In this document: positions 1 to 5,343 of the stretch, piece by piece
How the letters are laid out: every line of letters begins with the position of its first letter
Numbering within the stretch: the stretch's first letter is position 1
Virus record (IMG/VR): IMGVR_UViG_3300030397_000035
Strand: one strand, 5' to 3'
Origin: a virus
Length of the DNA stretch: 5,343 nucleotides
Notes under the pieces: model-generated
The model's database searches: none
Seen by the model: only the letters and a program-made list of their open reading frames with translations
What the model was told of the DNA's origin: nothing
Made by a program: the position numbers and the translations under genes

Positions 1-101
1 AATTTAGAAAAGAGAATGCAGAGGAATATACGCCGGGCAGATTGTGGAGTAAACACTTATGCAAGAAGGCGCGAACAGATTTACGCGAAAGGACTCTGTA
101 G
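1..101 (+). CDS. VP4: Duplicate copy of the 3' end of the VP4 replication initiator gene (partial, an artefact of linearisation)
   Basis: Identical to 5221-5321. The reading frame ends at TAG 99-101, which corresponds to the VP4 stop at 5319-5321. Confidence 0.9.
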   Translation, partial: FRKENAEEYTPGRLWSKHLCKKARTDLRERTL

Positions 102-123
102 GAACTGTATGGGATGTTTATGA
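1..123. repeat. Left copy of the 123-nt terminal redundancy of a circular genome (identical to 5221-5343)
   Basis: Base-by-base comparison of lines 1-123 and 5221-5343 shows identity over all 123 nt. This pattern is expected when a circular genome is assembled or linearised with an overlap. The unit length is 5220 nt. Confidence 0.97.
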
Positions 124-298
124 TGAGAGATACGATTCCCATTATGTACCAAGATGCAGCGTATGCGGAGGATATAAGGAGGGACTATTTGTACACTGGT
201 TTTTTACCGGATTGTATTGCCGAGCATGTATACAGTACAAGTTGTATGGTGATTTCCGGACGATTGAAAATATTAACGAAGGAGTAAGAAATGGTTAA
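59..298 (+). CDS. Hypothetical 79-aa protein with a CxxC-N17-CxxC zinc-ribbon-like motif
   Basis: ATG at 59 is preceded by GGAG at 46-49 (9-nt spacer). Cysteines fall at residues 33, 36, 54 and 57 (CSVC...CRAC, nt 155-229). The start overlaps the VP4 3' end by 43 nt in a different frame. The stop TAA 296-298 overlaps the next gene's ATG at 291. It sits on the same strand and in the same packing pattern as the core genes. I recognise no family. Confidence 0.6.
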   Translation: MQEGANRFTRKDSVGTVWDVYDERYDSHYVPRCSVCGGYKEGLFVHWFFTGLYCRACIQYKLYGDFRTIENINEGVRNG

Positions 299-581
299 GC
301 CTATGTATGCTATTTATGATTCAGTTAGTTGTGTATATGATCGCCCGTTTCCAGCGATGAATGATCAAGATGCTATTAGAAGTTTTACTAGTGTAGCGAT
401 GAATAAAGACACGGTTATTGGACAGCATCCAGAACATTTTAAATTGTTTAGAATTGGTAAATGGAATGATGCAGAAGGGAAGTTGTTTGGTGAGGGACCG
501 CATCATATTGCGTCCGCTCATGAGATAGTCTCTAAAGTTGTTGCGCTTGAGTCGGATACGGCCGTTGGGGGTACTGCTTAA
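291..581 (+). CDS. VP5: VP5-like small non-structural protein of gokushoviruses (96 aa)
   Basis: GAAGGAG at 278-284 lies 6 nt upstream of ATG 291. The N-terminal pattern MYAIYDSVSCVYDRPFPAMNDQDAIRSF...HPEHFKLFRIGKWND matches my recollection of the conserved small protein encoded just upstream of VP1 in gokushoviruses. The position immediately 5' of VP1 fits (TAA 579-581 is followed directly by the VP1 ATG at 582). Confidence 0.7.
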   Translation: MVKPMYAIYDSVSCVYDRPFPAMNDQDAIRSFTSVAMNKDTVIGQHPEHFKLFRIGKWNDAEGKLFGEGPHHIASAHEIVSKVVALESDTAVGGTA

Positions 582-2165
582 ATGCCTAGTTCAGTTATGA
601 CACATAGTTTTTCGGAGGTGCCGCGCGCGGAAATTCCGCGCTCGTCCTTTAATCGGTCGCATGGTGTAAAGACTACGTTTGATGCGGATTATCTTATTCC
701 CATTTTAGTAGATGATATTGTTCCCGGTGACACGTTTAATGTAAATATGTCGTTTTTTGCTAGATTGGCGACGCCGTTGCATCCGATTATGGATAATATG
801 TTTCTGGAGTCGTTTTTCTTCTTTGTTCCGTATCGTTTATTGTGGGATAATTTTGAGAAGTTTCACGGTTCTCAGGTCGATCCGGCGGATTCTATTGACT
901 TTACTATTCCGGCTCAGAGTTCCGGTACTACGGTTGATATTAGAAGTGGTAATGACGGTGCGTTAAGAACGTATATGGGTTTACCGCCTAATTCAAGTGT
1001 GGACTTGTCAGAGATTTCGGCGTTGCCTACGCGGGCTTATAACCTTATTTGGAATGAGTGGTTTAGGGATCAGAATTTACAGGATTCACTTACTGTGGAA
1101 ACGGATGATGGCCCTGATACTTATGCTTCTTATGCGTTGGTCAAGCGTGGTAAACGGCATGATTATTTTACTTCCGCGTTACCGTGGCCGCAGAAAGGTG
1201 ATGCGGTAGATTTGCCGTTGGGTACTGTTGCAGAGGTCCATACTGCTGCGGGTGTCGCTGGTAATATCGGTATTTATTCCGATTCGACTAGTTCCTATAA
1301 GTTGATGGACCCTAATACTGGCGCGGGTTTTGTGCAGGTTGATTCTGGTACGACTAATGCACAGACTAACGTTATGTATGCTGATTTGTCTAGTGCTACA
1401 TCGGCAACGATTAATGATTTGCGTTTGGCGTTTCAGACTCAGCGTTTATTAGAGAGAGATGCTCGTTCAGGCACCCGTTATAATGAGATGATTTTGGCGC
1501 ATTTCGGTGTGACGGTTCCAGATTTCCGCGTACAGAGGCCGGAATATTTGGGCGGTGGTAGTACGCGTGTGAACGTGACGCCTGTAGCGCAGACGTCGGG
1601 GCAGCCGACTCCTGCTGCGGATGATGCTCTAGGCTTGCTTGGCGGTTTTGGTACAGCTAGCGGGACTCATGGTTTTACTAAGTCGTTTGTTGAGCATGGT
1701 GTATTGATCGGTCTGGTTAACTTGCGTGCGGATATTACGTACAGTCAGGGTGTAGAGAGATATTGGCATAAATCGACTCGGTATGATTTCTATTATCCGG
1801 TTTTGTCGATGATTGGCGAGCAGGCAGTGCTTGATCAGGAGATTTTTTATCAGAATACAAGTGCTGATGATGATGTCTTTGGTTATCAGGAGCGTTATGC
1901 AGAATACAGGTATAAGCCGTCAAGATTGACTGGTTTGTTTGCTGTTGATCATGCTAGTAGCTTGAAAGCGTGGCATTTGTCGGAAGATTTCGGAAGTTTG
2001 CCGACTTTGGGCGATACGTTTATTCAGTCTAATACAGGTACGCCTTTGGATCGGGCTATTGCTGTTAATACAGAGCCGCATTTGCTATTTGATGCGCATT
2101 TTAACATGCAGTGTGCTCGACCAATGCCGTTGTTTGGTGTTCCGGGTAACTTGGATAGGTTCTAA
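582..2165 (+). CDS. VP1: Major capsid protein VP1 (phiX174 F-protein family), 527 aa
   Basis: This is the longest ORF. The N-terminal motifs [20 protein letters not shown] and [14 protein letters not shown], and the C-terminal motifs, are characteristic of Microviridae/Gokushovirinae major capsid proteins. Size and gene order (VP1-VP2-VP3) fit. An alternative start at Met6 (nt 597) is possible. Confidence 0.93.
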
Positions 2166-2797
2166 TGTCTCTTGAAGCGTTTGTAACAGGTGGTTTGGGT
2201 AGCATCTTTTCTGGTCTAGGCCAGCATAGTGCTAATAAAACTAATGTTAAACTAATGAGGGAGGCTAATGCTTTTACTGAAAGGATGTCGAATACTGCTG
2301 TACAGCGTAGGATGGCTGACTTGGAAGCTGCTGGAATTAATCCTATACTCGCTGGTAAGTTTGATGCTTCTACTCCTGCTAGTGCTCTTGCTACCGTCGG
2401 TAATGTCGGCGAAGCTGCTGTGGCTGGTGCACAAGGAGGCATGACGGCTGGTGTAGCTGGTGCTAGTTTGGGGCCTACATTGGATCAAATTGGTGCTCGG
2501 GCTGATTTAAGTCGAAGGCAGACGGAAGCGTTAGGATTGGTGGCTGAAGCATCTAGTAACGCCGGTGCTTTTCTGAAAACATTGCTCGAAAAGATTCAGA
2601 GTACAGATTTTACGTCTCTGGATATCGAGAATATGTTGGAGTTTTTCAAGGCAGATATGAAAGACACAGCACGAAGTTTAATGGAAAGTATCGCAGAGGG
2701 TATACATAAGCGTTTTGATCAAGTGAGCGATGATATAGCCAATTGGTATTATGATTCCGACGGTAATCGTCGAAGAAATAGAGAAGGAAACTATTAA
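2165..2797 (+). CDS. VP2: Minor capsid / DNA pilot protein VP2, 210 aa
   Basis: There is a TAATG overlap with the VP1 stop (2163-2167). It carries the conserved gokushovirus VP2 signature [23 protein letters not shown], followed by a Gly/Ala-rich segment and a helical C-terminus. It is positioned between VP1 and VP3. Confidence 0.88.
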
Positions 2798-3273
2798 TGA
2801 GTATGCTTGGAACTAGGCAGCCTACTGCTGAAGATTATAAGAAAACGAGAATGACGAAACAGTCATTTAAAGATAGTACAGATATTAATAAGATACTAAA
2901 GAAGGCGCAGACTAAGGGAACTGTGGCCCATTTGCAGAAGTATCCTGCAATGGTATACGGAGAGTTTACAGGGCAAGATTTGCAAGAGTCGTTGGCACTA
3001 ATAAATAAAGCTAATGAAATTTTTGCAGAGGCGCCTAGTGAGATTCGGAGAGAGTTCGATAATGATGCGTTGAAGTTTGCGGCATTTGCGAGTGATCCGG
3101 CTAATATTGATAGATTGCCGGAGTTGTTGCCGAAGATTGCTGAACCGGGGTCATATTTCCCGAACCCGGTGAAGCGATCGGCAGTGGAGCCGGTGAGTCC
3201 TCAACCGGCTCCGGAGGGTGGCGATGCACCCTCTGGGACTGACGGAGGTGTCAGTCCCCCAGAGAGTGTCTAG
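2797..3273 (+). CDS. VP3: Internal scaffolding protein VP3, 158 aa, with a Pro/Gly/Ser-rich C-terminal tail
   Basis: There is a TAATG overlap with the VP2 stop (2795-2799). The motifs MTKQSFKDSTDINKILKK, YGEFTG and EIRREFDNDALKFAAFASDPAN resemble gokushovirus VP3. The last ~30 residues (SAVEPVSPQPAPEGGDAPSGTDGGVSPPESV) are low complexity and are encoded by a run of DNA hairpins. Confidence 0.85.
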   Translation: MSMLGTRQPTAEDYKKTRMTKQSFKDSTDINKILKKAQTKGTVAHLQKYPAMVYGEFTGQDLQESLALINKANEIFAEAPSEIRREFDNDALKFAAFASDPANIDRLPELLPKIAEPGSYFPNPVKRSAVEPVSPQPAPEGGDAPSGTDGGVSPPESV

Positions 3274-3287
3274 TAGGCTCTCTGGGG
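3187..3287 (+). other. Four consecutive perfect stem-loops spanning the VP3 3' end and its stop codon
   Basis: Inverted repeats verified by hand. GAGCCGGT 3187-3194 pairs with ACCGGCTC 3204-3211 (8 bp). GAGGGTG 3214-3220 pairs with CACCCTC 3227-3233 (7 bp). GGGACTGAC 3235-3243 pairs with GTCAGTCCC 3250-3258 (9 bp). CCCCAGAGAG 3257-3266 pairs with CTCTCTGGGG 3278-3287 (10 bp), and the loop of this last one contains the VP3 TAG at 3271-3273. A weaker 6-bp pair lies at 3144-3149 / 3165-3170. Confidence 0.85.
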
Positions 3288-3322
3288 CCCGCCCTGGCTA
3301 ACGCTAGGGCGGGCTTTTTTTT
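3287..3322 (+). terminator. Rho-independent terminator 1
   Basis: GCCCGCCCT 3287-3295 pairs perfectly with AGGGCGGGC 3306-3314. The stem can extend by 3 more pairs to a TAAC loop. It is followed immediately by eight T residues (3315-3322). Confidence 0.85.
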
Positions 3323-3328
3323 GGTACG

Positions 3329-3356
3329 CGCGCGGTAACTTTCCCGCGCGTTTTTT
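3329..3356 (+). terminator. Rho-independent terminator 2 (in tandem with terminator 1)
   Basis: CGCGCGG 3329-3335 pairs with CCGCGCG 3344-3350 (7 bp, all G/C, 8-nt loop). It is followed by six T residues (3351-3356). Confidence 0.75.
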
Positions 3357-3387
3357 GCATGTGCTACGCGAAGGTTTAGCAAGAAGG

Positions 3388-3430
3388 AATGCAAGGTCCG
3401 TGCCAATATTGGCCTTGCATTTTCGTTTTT
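3388..3430 (+). promoter_or_regulatory. Stem-loop enclosing a 12-bp perfect palindrome, followed by a T-rich tract (a third terminator-like element or an operator)
   Basis: AATGCAAGG 3388-3396 pairs with CCTTGCATT 3413-3421 (9 bp). The palindrome GCCAATATTGGC occupies 3402-3413 inside and overlapping the stem. TTTCGTTTTT follows at 3421-3430. Confidence 0.5.
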
Positions 3431-3443
3431 CGTATGGTTTAAT
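3415..3443 (+). promoter_or_regulatory. Candidate sigma70-type promoter for the accessory cassette (TTGCAT-N17-TTTAAT)
   Basis: TTGCAT at 3415-3420 and TTTAAT at 3438-3443 are separated by a 17-nt spacer. The pair lies about 29 nt upstream of the strong SD/ATG at 3461-3474. Both hexamers are imperfect, and the alternative -10 boxes TAATAT and TATATT overlap at 3440-3448. Confidence 0.3.
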
Positions 3444-3471
3444 ATATTTGCGTTAACAAAAGGAGGACGCT

Positions 3472-3642
3472 ATGAAAAACCATGATCTATGGGTTGAAGA
3501 TTGGAAACTACACGTAAGGCAGTTACGCGATGTCTTTTATGGCGCTAACTTTTCTGCCGAAGAATGGAAGGAATTTCTAAGCGAGATGGACGATATTATC
3601 GAAGCTGCCCACTCTAATGCGGAGGAATGGAATCGTGAATGA
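3472..3642 (+). CDS. Hypothetical 56-aa acidic, Trp-rich protein (not in the supplied ORF track)
   Basis: Hand translation gives MKNHDLWVEDWKLHVRQLRDVFYGANFSAEEWKEFLSEMDDIIEAAHSNAEEWNRE, ending at TGA 3640-3642. AGGAGG at 3461-3466 lies 5 nt before ATG 3472, the best SD in the window. It is the first ORF after the terminators. It has 14 acidic and 6 basic residues and 4 Trp. Its stop overlaps the likely GTG start of the next ORF (GTGAATGA). Confidence 0.7.
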   Translation: MKNHDLWVEDWKLHVRQLRDVFYGANFSAEEWKEFLSEMDDIIEAAHSNAEEWNRE

Positions 3643-3838
3643 TGCACTTTTGAGTTTGATTGAAGCGGAGCAGCGTAAAGCCGACAGGCGGCGCGCTGCT
3701 ATTGAAGCGACTAAGTTGGAGATAGAACTAATTGGTGATAGTGTGAAACTGCGCGGTAAGCTGCAAAGGCAGGAAGCGGCCTTGCAGCAAAGTTTGGATA
3801 ATTTGGAGAAGTTGAACCGCGCAGGTAAGAAGAAGTAA
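3617..3838 (+). CDS. Hypothetical basic coiled-coil protein (73 aa from ATG 3617, more likely 67 aa from GTG 3635)
   Basis: The ORF track gives ATG 3617, but there is no SD upstream of it. GGAGG at 3621-3625 lies 9 nt before an in-frame GTG at 3635, which overlaps the upstream stop. The sequence is Leu/Glu/Lys/Arg/Gln-rich with heptad-like spacing and a KKK C-terminus (15 basic and 11 acidic residues in the 67-aa form). I recognise no family. Confidence 0.6.
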   Translation: MRRNGIVNDALLSLIEAEQRKADRRRAAIEATKLEIELIGDSVKLRGKLQRQEAALQQSLDNLEKLNRAGKKK

Positions 3839-4063
3839 ATGTATTACAGGGTCGGGGGAAACCCCGACCCTGTGTTAAAGTGGCCGCTGCGCGGCCTGTG
3901 GAGTCGCCTAAAGGCGACCCTCTTCAGGCGCCAGCGCGAAAAGGAGTCGCGCCTACGCTGCGCTACGGCGCGACGATTGCCTATTGCTTGGCTTTGGAGG
4001 GTCTATGAAGATTTTGGTAATATTGTCCGTACCCTTTTTTCTAAACGGATGCGGTGCGTTTAG
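3839..4063 (+). CDS. Questionable 74-aa Arg/Trp-rich ORF running through the hairpin array
   Basis: In its favour, the ATG at 3839 directly abuts the preceding TAA (TAAATG), which fits the coupling pattern seen elsewhere. Against it, there is no SD and the third codon positions are G/C-rich, unlike the T-ending codons of the other genes. The R/W/L-rich composition is typical of a chance ORF in GC-rich palindromic DNA. It also overlaps the better-supported 4005-4202 ORF by 59 nt. Confidence 0.2.
   Translation: MYYRVGGNPDPVLKWPLRGLWSRLKATLFRRQREKESRLRCATARRLPIAWLWRVYEDFGNIVRTLFSKRMRCV
3846..3873 (+). other. Perfect 12-bp stem with a GAAA tetraloop immediately after the coiled-coil ORF
   Basis: ACAGGGTCGGGG 3846-3857 pairs with CCCCGACCCTGT 3862-3873, and the loop is GAAA (3858-3861). 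It starts 8 nt after the TAA at 3836-3838. No T-run follows, so it is not a canonical intrinsic terminator. Confidence 0.85.
3882..3974 (+). repeat. GC-rich array of three further stem-loops, two of them sharing a GGAGTCGC arm
   Basis: GGCCGC 3882-3887 pairs with GCGGCC 3891-3896. GTCGCC 3903-3908 pairs with GGCGAC 3913-3918 (TAAA loop). GTCGCGCC 3946-3953 pairs with GGCGCGAC 3967-3974 (13-nt loop). The direct repeat GGAGTCGC occurs at 3900-3907 and 3943-3950. The region is visibly more GC-rich than the rest of the genome. Confidence 0.75.
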
Positions 4064-4202
4064 TGCTACTAACTTGCGCTGCGGTACGGACGGCGATAGT
4101 AGTTATGTTGAAATTATTTCTGCTCCGCAGAGTGTTTCGGCTAATGTTCGGGCTATGTCCGATTTGTGTGCGTTTGCTTATGAAGGAGATAACGATGGCT
4201 AG
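4005..4202 (+). CDS. Small secreted protein or putative lipoprotein, 65 aa (signal peptide MKILVILSVPFFLNG followed by Cys16)
   Basis: GGAGG at 3996-4000 lies 4 nt before ATG 4005, so I prefer this start to the TTG at 3984 given in the track. The N-terminus has one Lys, then a hydrophobic stretch, then L-N-G-C, which resembles a lipobox although Asn at -2 is non-canonical. The mature part is ~50 aa with two more Cys (26 and 55) and an acidic C-terminus. The T-ending codon usage matches the core genes. The stop TAG 4200-4202 overlaps the VP8 start (ATGGCTAG). Confidence 0.6.
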   Translation: MKILVILSVPFFLNGCGAFSATNLRCGTDGDSSYVEIISAPQSVSANVRAMSDLCAFAYEGDNDG

Positions 4203-4314
4203 ACGTAGTAAATTATCTTACGGTGGTTCTAAGCGTTTGTTTACGGCTACGGCTTCTAAAACTAATAGTATGAATGTGAAGCCTCGGCCGATGCGTGGCG
4301 GTATTCGTTTGTAG
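4195..4314 (+). CDS. VP8: Small basic DNA-binding/packaging protein (VP8, phiX174 J-protein analogue), 39 aa
   Basis: GAAGGAG at 4182-4188 lies 6 nt before ATG 4195. The product is MARRSKLSYGGSKRLFTATASKTNSMNVKPRPMRGGIRL, with 10 of 39 residues K/R and no D/E. The C-terminal PMRGGIRL is as I recall for gokushovirus ORF8 proteins. It lies immediately upstream of VP4. The track's 86-aa version (GTG 4054) has no SD. Confidence 0.8.
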   Translation: MARRSKLSYGGSKRLFTATASKTNSMNVKPRPMRGGIRL

Positions 4315-5321
4315 TGGGATGCGACAGTCCATTAAAAGGATGGAAGGATCGGGATACTGGCGGTTTGACGTTTGATAGGAGAAATTGTAGTGAAAAAATG
4401 GAAGTTGCTTGCGGTCAGTGTCTCGGTTGTCGTTTGGATTATTGTCGTATGTGGGCGATGCGAATTACCCACGAAGCCAGCTTGCATGAATATAAAGGAG
4501 GTAATTGCTTTATTACTCTGACGTATCGTGATGCTGATTTTTGCGATGAAGAGCAACTGGCAAAAGAGTTATATGTGCCGGATGATTGGAGTTTAAATAA
4601 ACGGCATTTCCAACTATTTATGAAGCGTTTGCGGAAAGCGTTTCCGAAGAGGGAGATTAGGTACTTTTATGCCGGTGAATACGGTCGGTGTTGCAGGCAT
4701 GGCATTGACGTACAGCGGGTTGGCTGTCCTCTCTGTAACGTGGGGCGTCCCCATTTTCATGCTTGTCTTTTTAATCATAGTTTTACTGATTTAGAGCCAT
4801 ATAGTTCCGATGGAGGAGTTTTACGTTATACTAGTCCGACTCTGGAGAAAATATGGGGATATGGTTTCGTTGACGTTGGCGATCTTACTTTTGCTTCTGC
4901 TAGTTATGTTGCAGGTTATGTACTAAAGAAGGTACGTGGGCCTGTAGCTGATGACCATTATCAAGCTTACGATATGGATGGAGAAATTACTTTTTTGGAA
5001 CCGGAGTTTGTCGGTATGAGTCGCGGTAATGCTGCTTACAAAGGGCAGAAGTGCGGTATCGGTGCCGGATGGTTTGAGAAGTATAAAGACGACTGTTTCC
5101 CAAGTGATGAGATTCCTATTCCGGGTGTCGGGGTTATGAAGGGCGTTCCGCGTTATTATGATGAAATGCTAAAAGATTATGACGAGGAGTTGTATTTAAA
5201 GATAAAGGAGTCTAGAACTCAATTTAGAAAAGAGAATGCAGAGGAATATACGCCGGGCAGATTGTGGAGTAAACACTTATGCAAGAAGGCGCGAACAGAT
5301 TTACGCGAAAGGACTCTGTAG
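4314..5321 (+). CDS. VP4: Replication initiation protein VP4 (HUH rolling-circle endonuclease, phiX174 A-protein family), 335 aa
   Basis: The GTG start at 4314 overlaps the VP8 TAG (TAGTG). The N-terminal GCDSPLKGW and CGQCLGCRLDY are typical of Microviridae Rep proteins. Motif I is FITLTY, the HUH motif is HFHACLF (nt 4752-4760), and the two-tyrosine motif is SYVAGYVLKK (Tyr198 and Tyr202, nt 4905-4919). A Cys-rich insertion lies between GEYG and RPHFH. Confidence 0.92.
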   Translation: MGCDSPLKGWKDRDTGGLTFDRRNCSEKMEVACGQCLGCRLDYCRMWAMRITHEASLHEYKGGNCFITLTYRDADFCDEEQLAKELYVPDDWSLNKRHFQLFMKRLRKAFPKREIRYFYAGEYGRCCRHGIDVQRVGCPLCNVGRPHFHACLFNHSFTDLEPYSSDGGVLRYTSPTLEKIWGYGFVDVGDLTFASASYVAGYVLKKVRGPVADDHYQAYDMDGEITFLEPEFVGMSRGNAAYKGQKCGIGAGWFEKYKDDCFPSDEIPIPGVGVMKGVPRYYDEMLKDYDEELYLKIKESRTQFRKENAEEYTPGRLWSKHLCKKARTDLRERTL

Positions 5322-5343
5322 GAACTGTATGGGATGTTTATGA
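5221..5343. repeat. Right copy of the 123-nt terminal redundancy (identical to 1-123)
   Basis: Identical to 1-123. It contains the last 101 nt of VP4 and the first 65 nt of the 79-aa ORF (ATG at 5279, equivalent to 59). Confidence 0.97.

Follow-up and report, generated by a model that had tools for sequence, protein, structure and literature searches.

The virus record IMGVR_UViG_3300030397_000035 (5343 nt; "the window" denotes this whole stretch of DNA) is a closed circular gokushovirus genome of 5220 nt, with bases 1-123 identical to 5221-5343. Between its VP3 stop codon and VP8 start codon lie 921 nt, or 17.6% of the genome, which contain two small, closely packed genes (A and B), a structured non-coding block and a lipoprotein gene. 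This interval is probably the transcription stop/start hub of the circular genome, and a module shared by a whole lineage instead of a private insertion. A conserved intrinsic terminator closes the structural operon, and the window genome has a second one behind it. A conserved promoter, of sigma-70 type by its sequence and with a predicted leader of ~20 nt, precedes A and B, and a GC stem-loop selected for its structure, with a highly structured non-coding spacer of ~130 nt, leads into the lipoprotein gene. A sequence-only reading of the same DNA had described positions 3274-4202 as a self-contained accessory cassette of about 920 nt, some 17% of the genome. The size is as measured here, and the promoter-gene-hairpin unit and an exchangeable gene A stand, but not a private insertion, since the genomes of the clade (5.1-5.65 kb) share the same plan.

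Probable transcription stop and start downstream of VP3

The features between VP3 and gene A are as follows.
3257-3287 (+), hairpin CCCCAGAGAG / CTCTCTGGGG with the VP3 stop codon in its loop (inverted repeat, 10 bp, 100% complementary)
3284-3322 (+), T1, intrinsic terminator ending the structural operon (in the scan 3284-3317, with 15 pairs, 10 of them GC, and a 4-nt loop, then T8)
3328-3357 (+), T2, second intrinsic terminator (in the scan 3328-3351, with 8 pairs, 7 of them GC, then T6)
3372-3421 (+), conserved upstream box with the inverted repeat AATGCAAGG (3388-3396) / CCTTGCATT (3413-3421), from alignment
3415-3443 (+), sigma-70-type promoter, TTGCAT (3415-3420), 17-nt spacer and TGgTTTAAT (3435-3443, extended -10), identified by eye
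3458-3466 (+), Shine-Dalgarno (SD) site AAAAGGAGG of gene A, 5 nt before the ATG at 3472, read from the sequence

In a scan of the whole genome T1 and T2 outrank all other terminator-like sites by a wide margin, and both consist of a GC-rich stem-loop directly before a U run, in agreement with the two intrinsic terminators previously placed after VP3. A GC-rich hairpin corresponding to T1 follows VP3 in every clade genome examined (individual genomes and contigs are given below by L numbers), with a T run next (weak in L052) and with differing stem sequences. T2 is not conserved in L039 or L048 and is thus specific to the window genome. By folding, the hairpin over the VP3 stop codon is also found at the VP3 ends of L048, L052, L054, L055 and L056.

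The candidate promoter previously suggested within 3380-3471 takes the form TTGCAT-17-TGgTTTAAT. It was missed by the promoter scan because it scores 8/12, the threshold being 9/12, which no site within 3380-3471 reaches. Its -35 and -10 elements are aligned at equal distance from the open reading frame (ORF) start in the genomes of eight relatives, for example as TTGACA-17-TAAATT in L056 and with TATAAT in L050 and L054, and in the genomes of L056, L050 and L054 this homologous site outscores (10/12) every other plus-strand promoter match. A second convincing plus-strand promoter was not found besides this site. The upstream box GTTT.GCA.GAAG.AATGCAAG..TGCCA is common to the window, L039, L055 and L056, and the exact inverted repeat, whose 3' arm overlaps the promoter -35, occurs in the window and L039 only. 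Four copies of AAGGAGG are present in the genome, compared with 0.5 expected, and AAAAGGAGG is the only one to precede a listed gene start, so that its earlier description as the strongest SD of the genome is a fair one.

The closed genomes of the clade (5114-5647 nt, with VP3-to-VP8 gaps of 651-1246 nt) are organized as in the window. The VP3-stop hairpin is followed by a GC-rich terminator with its T run, ~100-200 nt containing the -35 and -10 elements, and an AGGAGG-type SD site; then come A, B (the stop of the former and the start of the latter overlapping or abutting), a strong GC hairpin, further hairpins, an SD site, the lipoprotein gene, VP8 and VP4. All clade genomes examined contain the A-B-promoter module, in which the A allele alone differs. 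The VP3-to-VP4 gaps of more distant gokushoviruses measure only 111-730 nt. Synteny has a different reach for each gene: that of the lipoprotein extends across a broad clade and that of B across a narrower one, A is not syntenic, and no one of the three is present in all gokushoviruses.

The stem-loop after B and the non-coding hairpin array

Two structured features lie between B and the lipoprotein gene.
3846-3873 (+), perfect 12-bp stem with a GAAA loop (inverted repeat, 100% complementary, arms 3846-3857 / 3862-3873)
3874-3995 (+), GC-rich non-coding hairpin array, with hairpins at 3882-3896, 3903-3918 and 3946-3974 and GGAGTCGC at 3900 and 3943 (folds, alignment)

The first of these is the perfect hairpin that had been proposed to close the A-B unit. 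In the window its tail is GTGTTAAAG, with no U tract, and it therefore lacks the U run of an intrinsic terminator, unlike T1 and T2. That the unit is insulated is therefore doubtful for the window genome. Comparison with L039 reveals three compensatory double changes in the stem, two one-sided changes that preserve pairing and none that break a pair. All clade genomes have a corresponding GC hairpin after B, with a T8 run behind it only in L054 and L056. With a closing hairpin that has no U tract, and with a single convincing plus-strand promoter located in the window genome, the promoter upstream of A may also feed the lipoprotein, VP8 and VP4 genes and those beyond.

The region 3839-4004 has a fold z-score of -5.9 as RNA and -6.2 as DNA. 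The array within it is 81% identical to L039, and single-base insertions and deletions (indels) in this alignment exclude a coding function; the ORFs 3839-4063 and 3880-4008 were ruled out as genes on the same grounds. The two copies of GGAGTCGC (3900-3907 and 3943-3950, 43 nt apart, compared with 0.1 expected) each stand at the 5' foot of a hairpin, and the motif recurs in the matching region of L039 (637/679), L054 (2538) and L056 (1282); its role might be one of recognition, in replication or in RNA binding. In the minimum-energy RNA fold, the segment 3991-4001, which includes the lipoprotein SD GGAGGG, pairs with the upstream CCCUCUUC (3918-3929), a modeled pairing that could mask the SD site and lower translation. 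A search of 3200-4320 against Rfam gave seven matches, every one far under its gathering score.

Stem-loop 3846-3873 and array 3874-3995, perhaps together with the 3388-3421 repeat, might act on the single-stranded DNA (ssDNA) genome, as a complementary-strand origin or as a replication or packaging signal. Hairpin origins of this kind include the primase/primosome hairpins of G4 and phiX174 and the minus origin of M13; every microvirus needs a complementary-strand origin, and none is known to have been mapped in gokushoviruses. The proposal leaves room for A and B as genes and for a role in transcription. It would account for the fold z-score as DNA, for the conservation of the array above that of the B codons, and for the placement and recurrence of GGAGTCGC. 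Against this, lipoprotein-bearing relatives that lack A and B have ~65 nt and a single hairpin at this place, showing that the array is not universally required; the first hairpin of L054 and L056 has the appearance of an ordinary terminator; and the loops vary in sequence within the clade. A function on the ssDNA genome is regarded as a tentative possibility, less likely than not.

The A-B gene pair

The two small ORFs downstream of the promoter are coupled, as the sequence-only reading had described, with an overlap of 8 nt.
3472-3642 (+), gene A (o56), ORF of 56 aa, acidic (isoelectric point, pI, 4.6) and Trp-rich, occupying a hypervariable slot
3635-3838 (+), gene B (o67), ORF of 67 aa, basic (pI 9.8), with a GTG start and the SD site GGAGGAA at 3621-3627

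Gene A has no homologues among 5.8 billion clustered proteins, matching itself only. In nine genomes the A slot holds ten ORFs of 56-77 aa with essentially no mutual similarity, eight of them acidic (pI 4.2-5.2) and two basic (pI 8.6 in L048 and 11.2 in L057). Pfam and PHROGs scans of the nine A-slot ORFs other than that of the window gave nothing significant. Two weak links were found, one between the 56-aa A of the window and the 66-aa A of L056, discordant with the relationships of the adjacent B genes, and the other between the 72-aa A of L070 and the 64-aa A of L052 (E = 3e-6), whose B genes are not nearest relatives. Because the links between A alleles do not track the relationships of the adjacent B genes, the alleles appear to be exchanged. 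A C-terminal motif common to the A alleles was considered, and is not supported by their comparison; nor is homology between the 56-aa A of the window and the 69-aa A of L039.

When the window is compared with L039, identity is only 40% in the A region (unalignable), but reaches 78% in the promoter flank and 81% in the hairpin array downstream. In gene B the corresponding values are 60% at third codon positions and 72% at first and second positions. The non-coding flanks of A, at 78% and 81% compared with 60% for B third positions, are thus constrained more strongly than coding sequence, and are likely the recombination arms for the swapping of A. The L039 contig begins with GTTTCCCAGTCACGATC (positions 1-17), presumably a random-amplification primer left in the assembly.

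The GTG start of B is agreed on by gene callers and homologues. The closest homologue of B, with 69% identity, is encoded by L039 (a 712-nt ENA contig), and further homologues with 30-64% identity are found in L048, L052, L054, L055, L056 and L070, with shortened relatives of 43-57 aa in L050, L057 and probably MH572418. An exhaustive search with a two-sequence profile extended the family to 24 representative clusters at 50% identity, nearly all of 64-70 aa; a first metagenome scan with the B alignment had found no relatives, and GenBank phages gave no tblastn match to B. The ratio of nonsynonymous to synonymous substitution rates (dN/dS) is 0.15-0.4 in most pairs, and by this measure B is under purifying selection. 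Homologues have a pI of 9-10, and in their alignment K15, R18 and G34 are invariant and K42, R45, K59 and L60 nearly so. The AlphaFold2 model of B (predicted local distance difference test score, pLDDT, 95) is an antiparallel two-helix hairpin with helices 3-33 and 37-66. The three small products had been described as accessory orphans, and this description holds for A, which is genome-specific, and fails for the conserved B (24 clusters) and lipoprotein (at least 45 clusters).

At the position of B, L045-47 and L061 encode an HTH_28 protein, which hints at a regulator role for B. These genomes form a sister lineage, in which the slot holds an 81-aa minus-strand ORF (seen in L045-47) and a divergent 77-aa HTH_28 protein (in L045 at 1305-1550 (-) and 1610-1843 (+), respectively). 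This layout resembles a small genetic switch, and a minus-strand gene would be very unusual for a microvirus.

The arrangement of A and B is reminiscent of the acr-aca operons, in which a strong promoter is followed by a small, mostly acidic, hypervariable gene and then by a conserved small gene, and the shuffling of A alleles among relatives is a further likeness. However, B is a predicted helical hairpin and not a helix-turn-helix (HTH) repressor, a protein of the HTH kind taking the place of the conserved gene in L045-47 and L061 only; the inverted repeat that overlaps the -35 in the window and L039 is not conserved clade-wide; and the A alleles match no known anti-defence protein. By this analogy, our best guess, held with low confidence, is that A would serve in anti-defence or host takeover, and with similarly low confidence B might be its conserved partner or regulator.

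A and B could also constitute a toxin-antitoxin-like or self-neutralizing pair, with acidic A masking basic B until B is needed, and no role in host defence. The opposite charge of A and B in eight of the ten A-slot ORFs and the overlapping or abutting stop and start codons would suit such a pair. It is nevertheless improbable, since the A alleles share no conserved interface motif, which is hard to reconcile with a single conserved partner, and since the A-slot ORFs of L048 and L057 are themselves basic.

The lipoprotein gene

The last gene of the interval and its downstream boundary are as follows.
4005-4202 (+), lipoprotein gene (o65), ORF of 65 aa with signal peptide and lipobox, SD GGAGGG at 3996-4001
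4195-4314 (+), VP8, J-like DNA-binding protein, downstream boundary of the interval (phrog_10695, E = 1.6e-13)

The SD-led signal-peptide protein noticed previously before VP8 also contains a lipobox. Its signal peptide comprises residues 1-15, followed by a predicted lipidated Cys16 (codon 4050-4052) in the lipobox LNGC. In an alignment of 42 sequences, Cys16, Cys26 and Cys55 are invariant and a lipobox is present in nearly every homologue, in most of them as the canonical L[SGAT][GA]C; the family conforms to the signal-peptidase-II pattern [LVI][ASTVI][GAS]C with its invariant Cys. The mature consensus CGAFSATTLRCGTDGxSSYVE..SAPQ...R....C.FAYE is nearly frozen. Weak Pfam hits to the lipobox only were obtained for 15 of the 42 members (LptM_cons in 11 and LPAM_1 in four). 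Gly at position +2 suggests, by the rule for E. coli, sorting to the outer membrane in a diderm host.

A large protein search retrieved at least 45 clusters (56-100% identity), headed by the protein of the window itself; many of these clusters sit on contigs of 5.2-5.8 kb. By tblastn (36 relatives), homologues with 40-53% identity were found in ten IMG/VR genomes of 4.4-4.9 kb, all of which lack A and B. The homologues are always located between VP3 and VP8/VP4. Identity to the window within the clade is 63-82% for the mature domain of the lipoprotein, compared with 62-69% for VP1 and 47-70% for VP4, and by these sequence comparisons the lipoprotein is as conserved as the capsid protein VP1. 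Its stop codon overlaps the VP8 start by 8 nt in the window and in most clade genomes where both genes are called, suggesting translational coupling. Because it is syntenic, is found without A and B, overlaps VP8 and is conserved like a capsid protein, the lipoprotein is assigned from sequence to the VP8-VP4 gene string and not to the A-B cassette. Three GenBank microviruses encode the lipoprotein and it is annotated in none of them; in KP087952 the gene lies in a 1072-nt unannotated VP3-to-VP4 gap.

In L004-L011 and L021, which encode the lipoprotein and lack A and B, a conserved hairpin CTGGCTAGGTG...CACCTAGC is present within the first ~65-80 nt after the VP3 stop, and L035 has a related one. 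It is not a canonical terminator because the run next to it is A-rich and not T-rich.

A profile search of the lipoprotein against PDB sequences gave a chance hit only (E = 0.77), and Foldseek against PDB gave nothing at E <= 0.001. When 185,579 species genomes were scanned for the lipoprotein, the only matches were spurious ones of 16 residues, in a high-GC Acetobacteraceae metagenome-assembled genome with no matching ORF; the scan thus yielded no host clue and found no prophage copy. A search of the literature on gokushovirus or microvirus lipoproteins or lysis proteins gave nothing relevant.

The lipoprotein is inferred to be a clade-core envelope effector. A role in lysis or in interference with envelope biogenesis is favored tentatively, at somewhat less than an even chance, and a role in receptor masking or superinfection exclusion is a possible alternative; the former is placed slightly above the latter because extreme conservation argues for a conserved host target. 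The phage T5 Llp/Cor receptor-blocking lipoproteins are likewise small (the mature part here is ~50 aa), with extra Cys residues and probable outer-membrane sorting (Gly +2). In contrast to them, the lipoprotein resembles no solved structure in sequence or fold, and it is more conserved than expected for the partner of variable receptor loops. The colicin lysis proteins, small lipoproteins able to cause quasi-lysis alone, are a precedent for a lipoprotein lysis effector. They differ in that the mature part of the lipoprotein is longer, with a predicted beta-hairpin and helix and two extra invariant Cys, and no match to Pfam Lysis_col was found at E <= 1 among the 42 members.

No lysis gene is known in gokushoviruses, and the small lipoprotein adjoins a coiled-coil protein, which invites the view that the interval is a lysis cassette, with the lipoprotein as outer-membrane spanin, B as coiled-coil inner-membrane spanin and A as timing factor or antagonist. 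This is very unlikely, since neither A nor B has a transmembrane segment or signal peptide as read from their sequences, and B has no hydrophobic segment such as a two-component spanin (Rz/Rz1) would have. Moreover, the lipoprotein occurs without B in ten genomes, it is not proline-rich, and no spanin (e.g. Rz1) or colicin-lysis family appears among the Pfam hits of the 42 members at E up to 1.

Comparison with morons and with phiX174

The interval shares with the morons of lambdoid phages its own promoter and SD site, the upstream terminator, the downstream stem-loop and a location between core genes, and as in morons the content of one slot, that of A, varies between close relatives. The module differs from morons in being fixed lineage-wide in a 5-kb ssDNA phage instead of sporadic, in containing the conserved B, and in its position at the transcription start of the genome, from where it may also drive core genes. 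Morons are missing from the same site in close relatives, whereas all clade genomes examined carry the module. Of the promoter and terminator flanks of morons, the promoter is conserved here, and the downstream U tract is found in L054 and L056 and not in the window.

These comparisons bear on the original proposal that the whole of 3274-4202 is one insulated, genome-specific, moron-like insertion with three independently expressed accessory orphans. The flanking signals, the products without a named family and the short VP3-to-VP4 gaps of distant gokushoviruses agree with it. The lipoprotein, however, keeps its syntenic place in at least 45 clusters and ten genomes without A and B, overlaps VP8 and is conserved like VP1; B is conserved across the clade, all members of which carry the module; and the closing hairpin of the window has no U tract. 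A single private insertion is thus already largely refuted by synteny, and little likelihood is left to the proposal as a whole.

The leaky-terminator gradient of phiX174 (promoters PA, PB and PD; terminators TJ, TF, TG and TH) offers a parallel, with intergenic stem-loops setting expression stepwise, as may be the case here. The gene content differs, phiX174 having neither an A/B-like pair nor the lipoprotein.

Proposed working of the interval

If the interval is a transcription hub, A and B would be the earliest and most abundant products, being promoter-proximal. Stem-loop 3846-3873 would act as a partial terminator or attenuator, or as a stabilizer of the mRNA 3' end, and would produce a step-down in expression into the lipoprotein, VP8 and VP4. 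Some transcripts probably continue into these genes and beyond, because the stem-loop in the window has no U tract. A would be a host-interaction effector swapped by recombination between the conserved flanks.

Several observations weigh against this account. The window promoter matches at 8/12 plus an extended -10, below the scan threshold. In L054 and L056 a full terminator closes A-B, so that the downstream genes of these genomes require read-through or an unlocated promoter. The promoter inverted repeat, exact only in the window and L039, is a weakly supported operator for B; no HTH family was hit by B, whose model is a two-helix hairpin; and Foldseek retrieved for B generic antiparallel helical hairpins only (the Topo I linker, the hantavirus N coiled coil and the SerRS arm), which were treated as shape matches only. 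For A, scans of Pfam, PHROGs, NCBIfam and PADLOC gave no match to an anti-defence or other family, and the grounds for regarding A as coding are its SD site and ORF, its overlap with B and the occupation of the same slot in relatives, and not conservation. The lipobox LNGC of the window has an unusual Asn at position -2, the AlphaFold2 model of the lipoprotein (a beta-hairpin and a helix) has a moderate pLDDT of 67, and no relative of known function was found for the lipoprotein by sequence or structure.

A more far-reaching combination of these functions can be imagined, in which A occupies a promoter-proximal exchange slot for anti-defence or takeover genes, policed by B as a new, non-HTH helical-hairpin regulator in an acr-aca-like system of microviruses, and in which the lipoprotein is the lysis or exclusion protein so far missing from gokushoviruses, with a conserved envelope machine as its target. 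Taken together these are doubtful.

Other features of the genome

The core genes outside the interval were assigned with Pfam/PHROGs.
291-581 (+), VP5
582-2165 (+), VP1
2165-2797 (+), VP2
2797-3273 (+), VP3
4314-5321 (+), VP4

The closest GenBank records, KP087936 and MH572418, have a nucleotide identity of only ~70%. The stretch VP2-VP3-gap-VP8-VP4 is 100% identical in five independent Logan assemblies (SRR4039770-74), which rules out a chimeric assembly of the interval. Blastn of the gap against GenBank phages gave chance fragments only, and no close relatives turned up when IMG/VR was scanned with each small ORF in turn. None of the three small products had a significant hit in Pfam, PHROGs, NCBIfam or PADLOC, in line with the earlier remark that none resembles a nameable family.

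A 79-aa ORF at 59-298 (+), between VP4 and VP5, overlaps the 3' end of VP4 in another frame and the start of VP5. It contains a CxxC...CxxC zinc-ribbon motif (YVPRCSxCG..HWFFTGLYCxxC), is 38-52% identical in six clade genomes (L048, L050, L052, L054, L055 and L057) and belongs to no PHROG family; it is an additional clade-core gene, outside the usual list of six. Within VP2, an AAGGAGG at 2433-2443 (+) is followed 1 nt further by an in-frame ATG (Met93 of VP2), which could be an internal start for a C-terminal VP2 product, comparable to A/A* in phiX174.

Implications

Microviruses have limited accessory repertoires, with lysis-related accessory genes located at fixed sites in other microvirus families only, and many of their small proteins (mean 65 aa) are of unknown function, small ORFs being usually unannotated (Kirchberger et al. 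2022, PMC9239249). The A-B-lipoprotein interval is partly accessory, a conserved lineage feature built from three different kinds of gene, and the gokushovirus lineage that carries it devotes 12-22% of a capsid-limited genome to the gene pair, the structured block and the lipoprotein. It combines a structured non-coding block constrained more than neighboring codons with a promoter-driven pair in which one gene is freely swapped. These genes can be cloned as candidates for the lysis or exclusion function of gokushoviruses and for a counter-defence function in tiny ssDNA phages, and either B or the lipoprotein can serve as a conserved anchor for finding further such genes by guilt by association.

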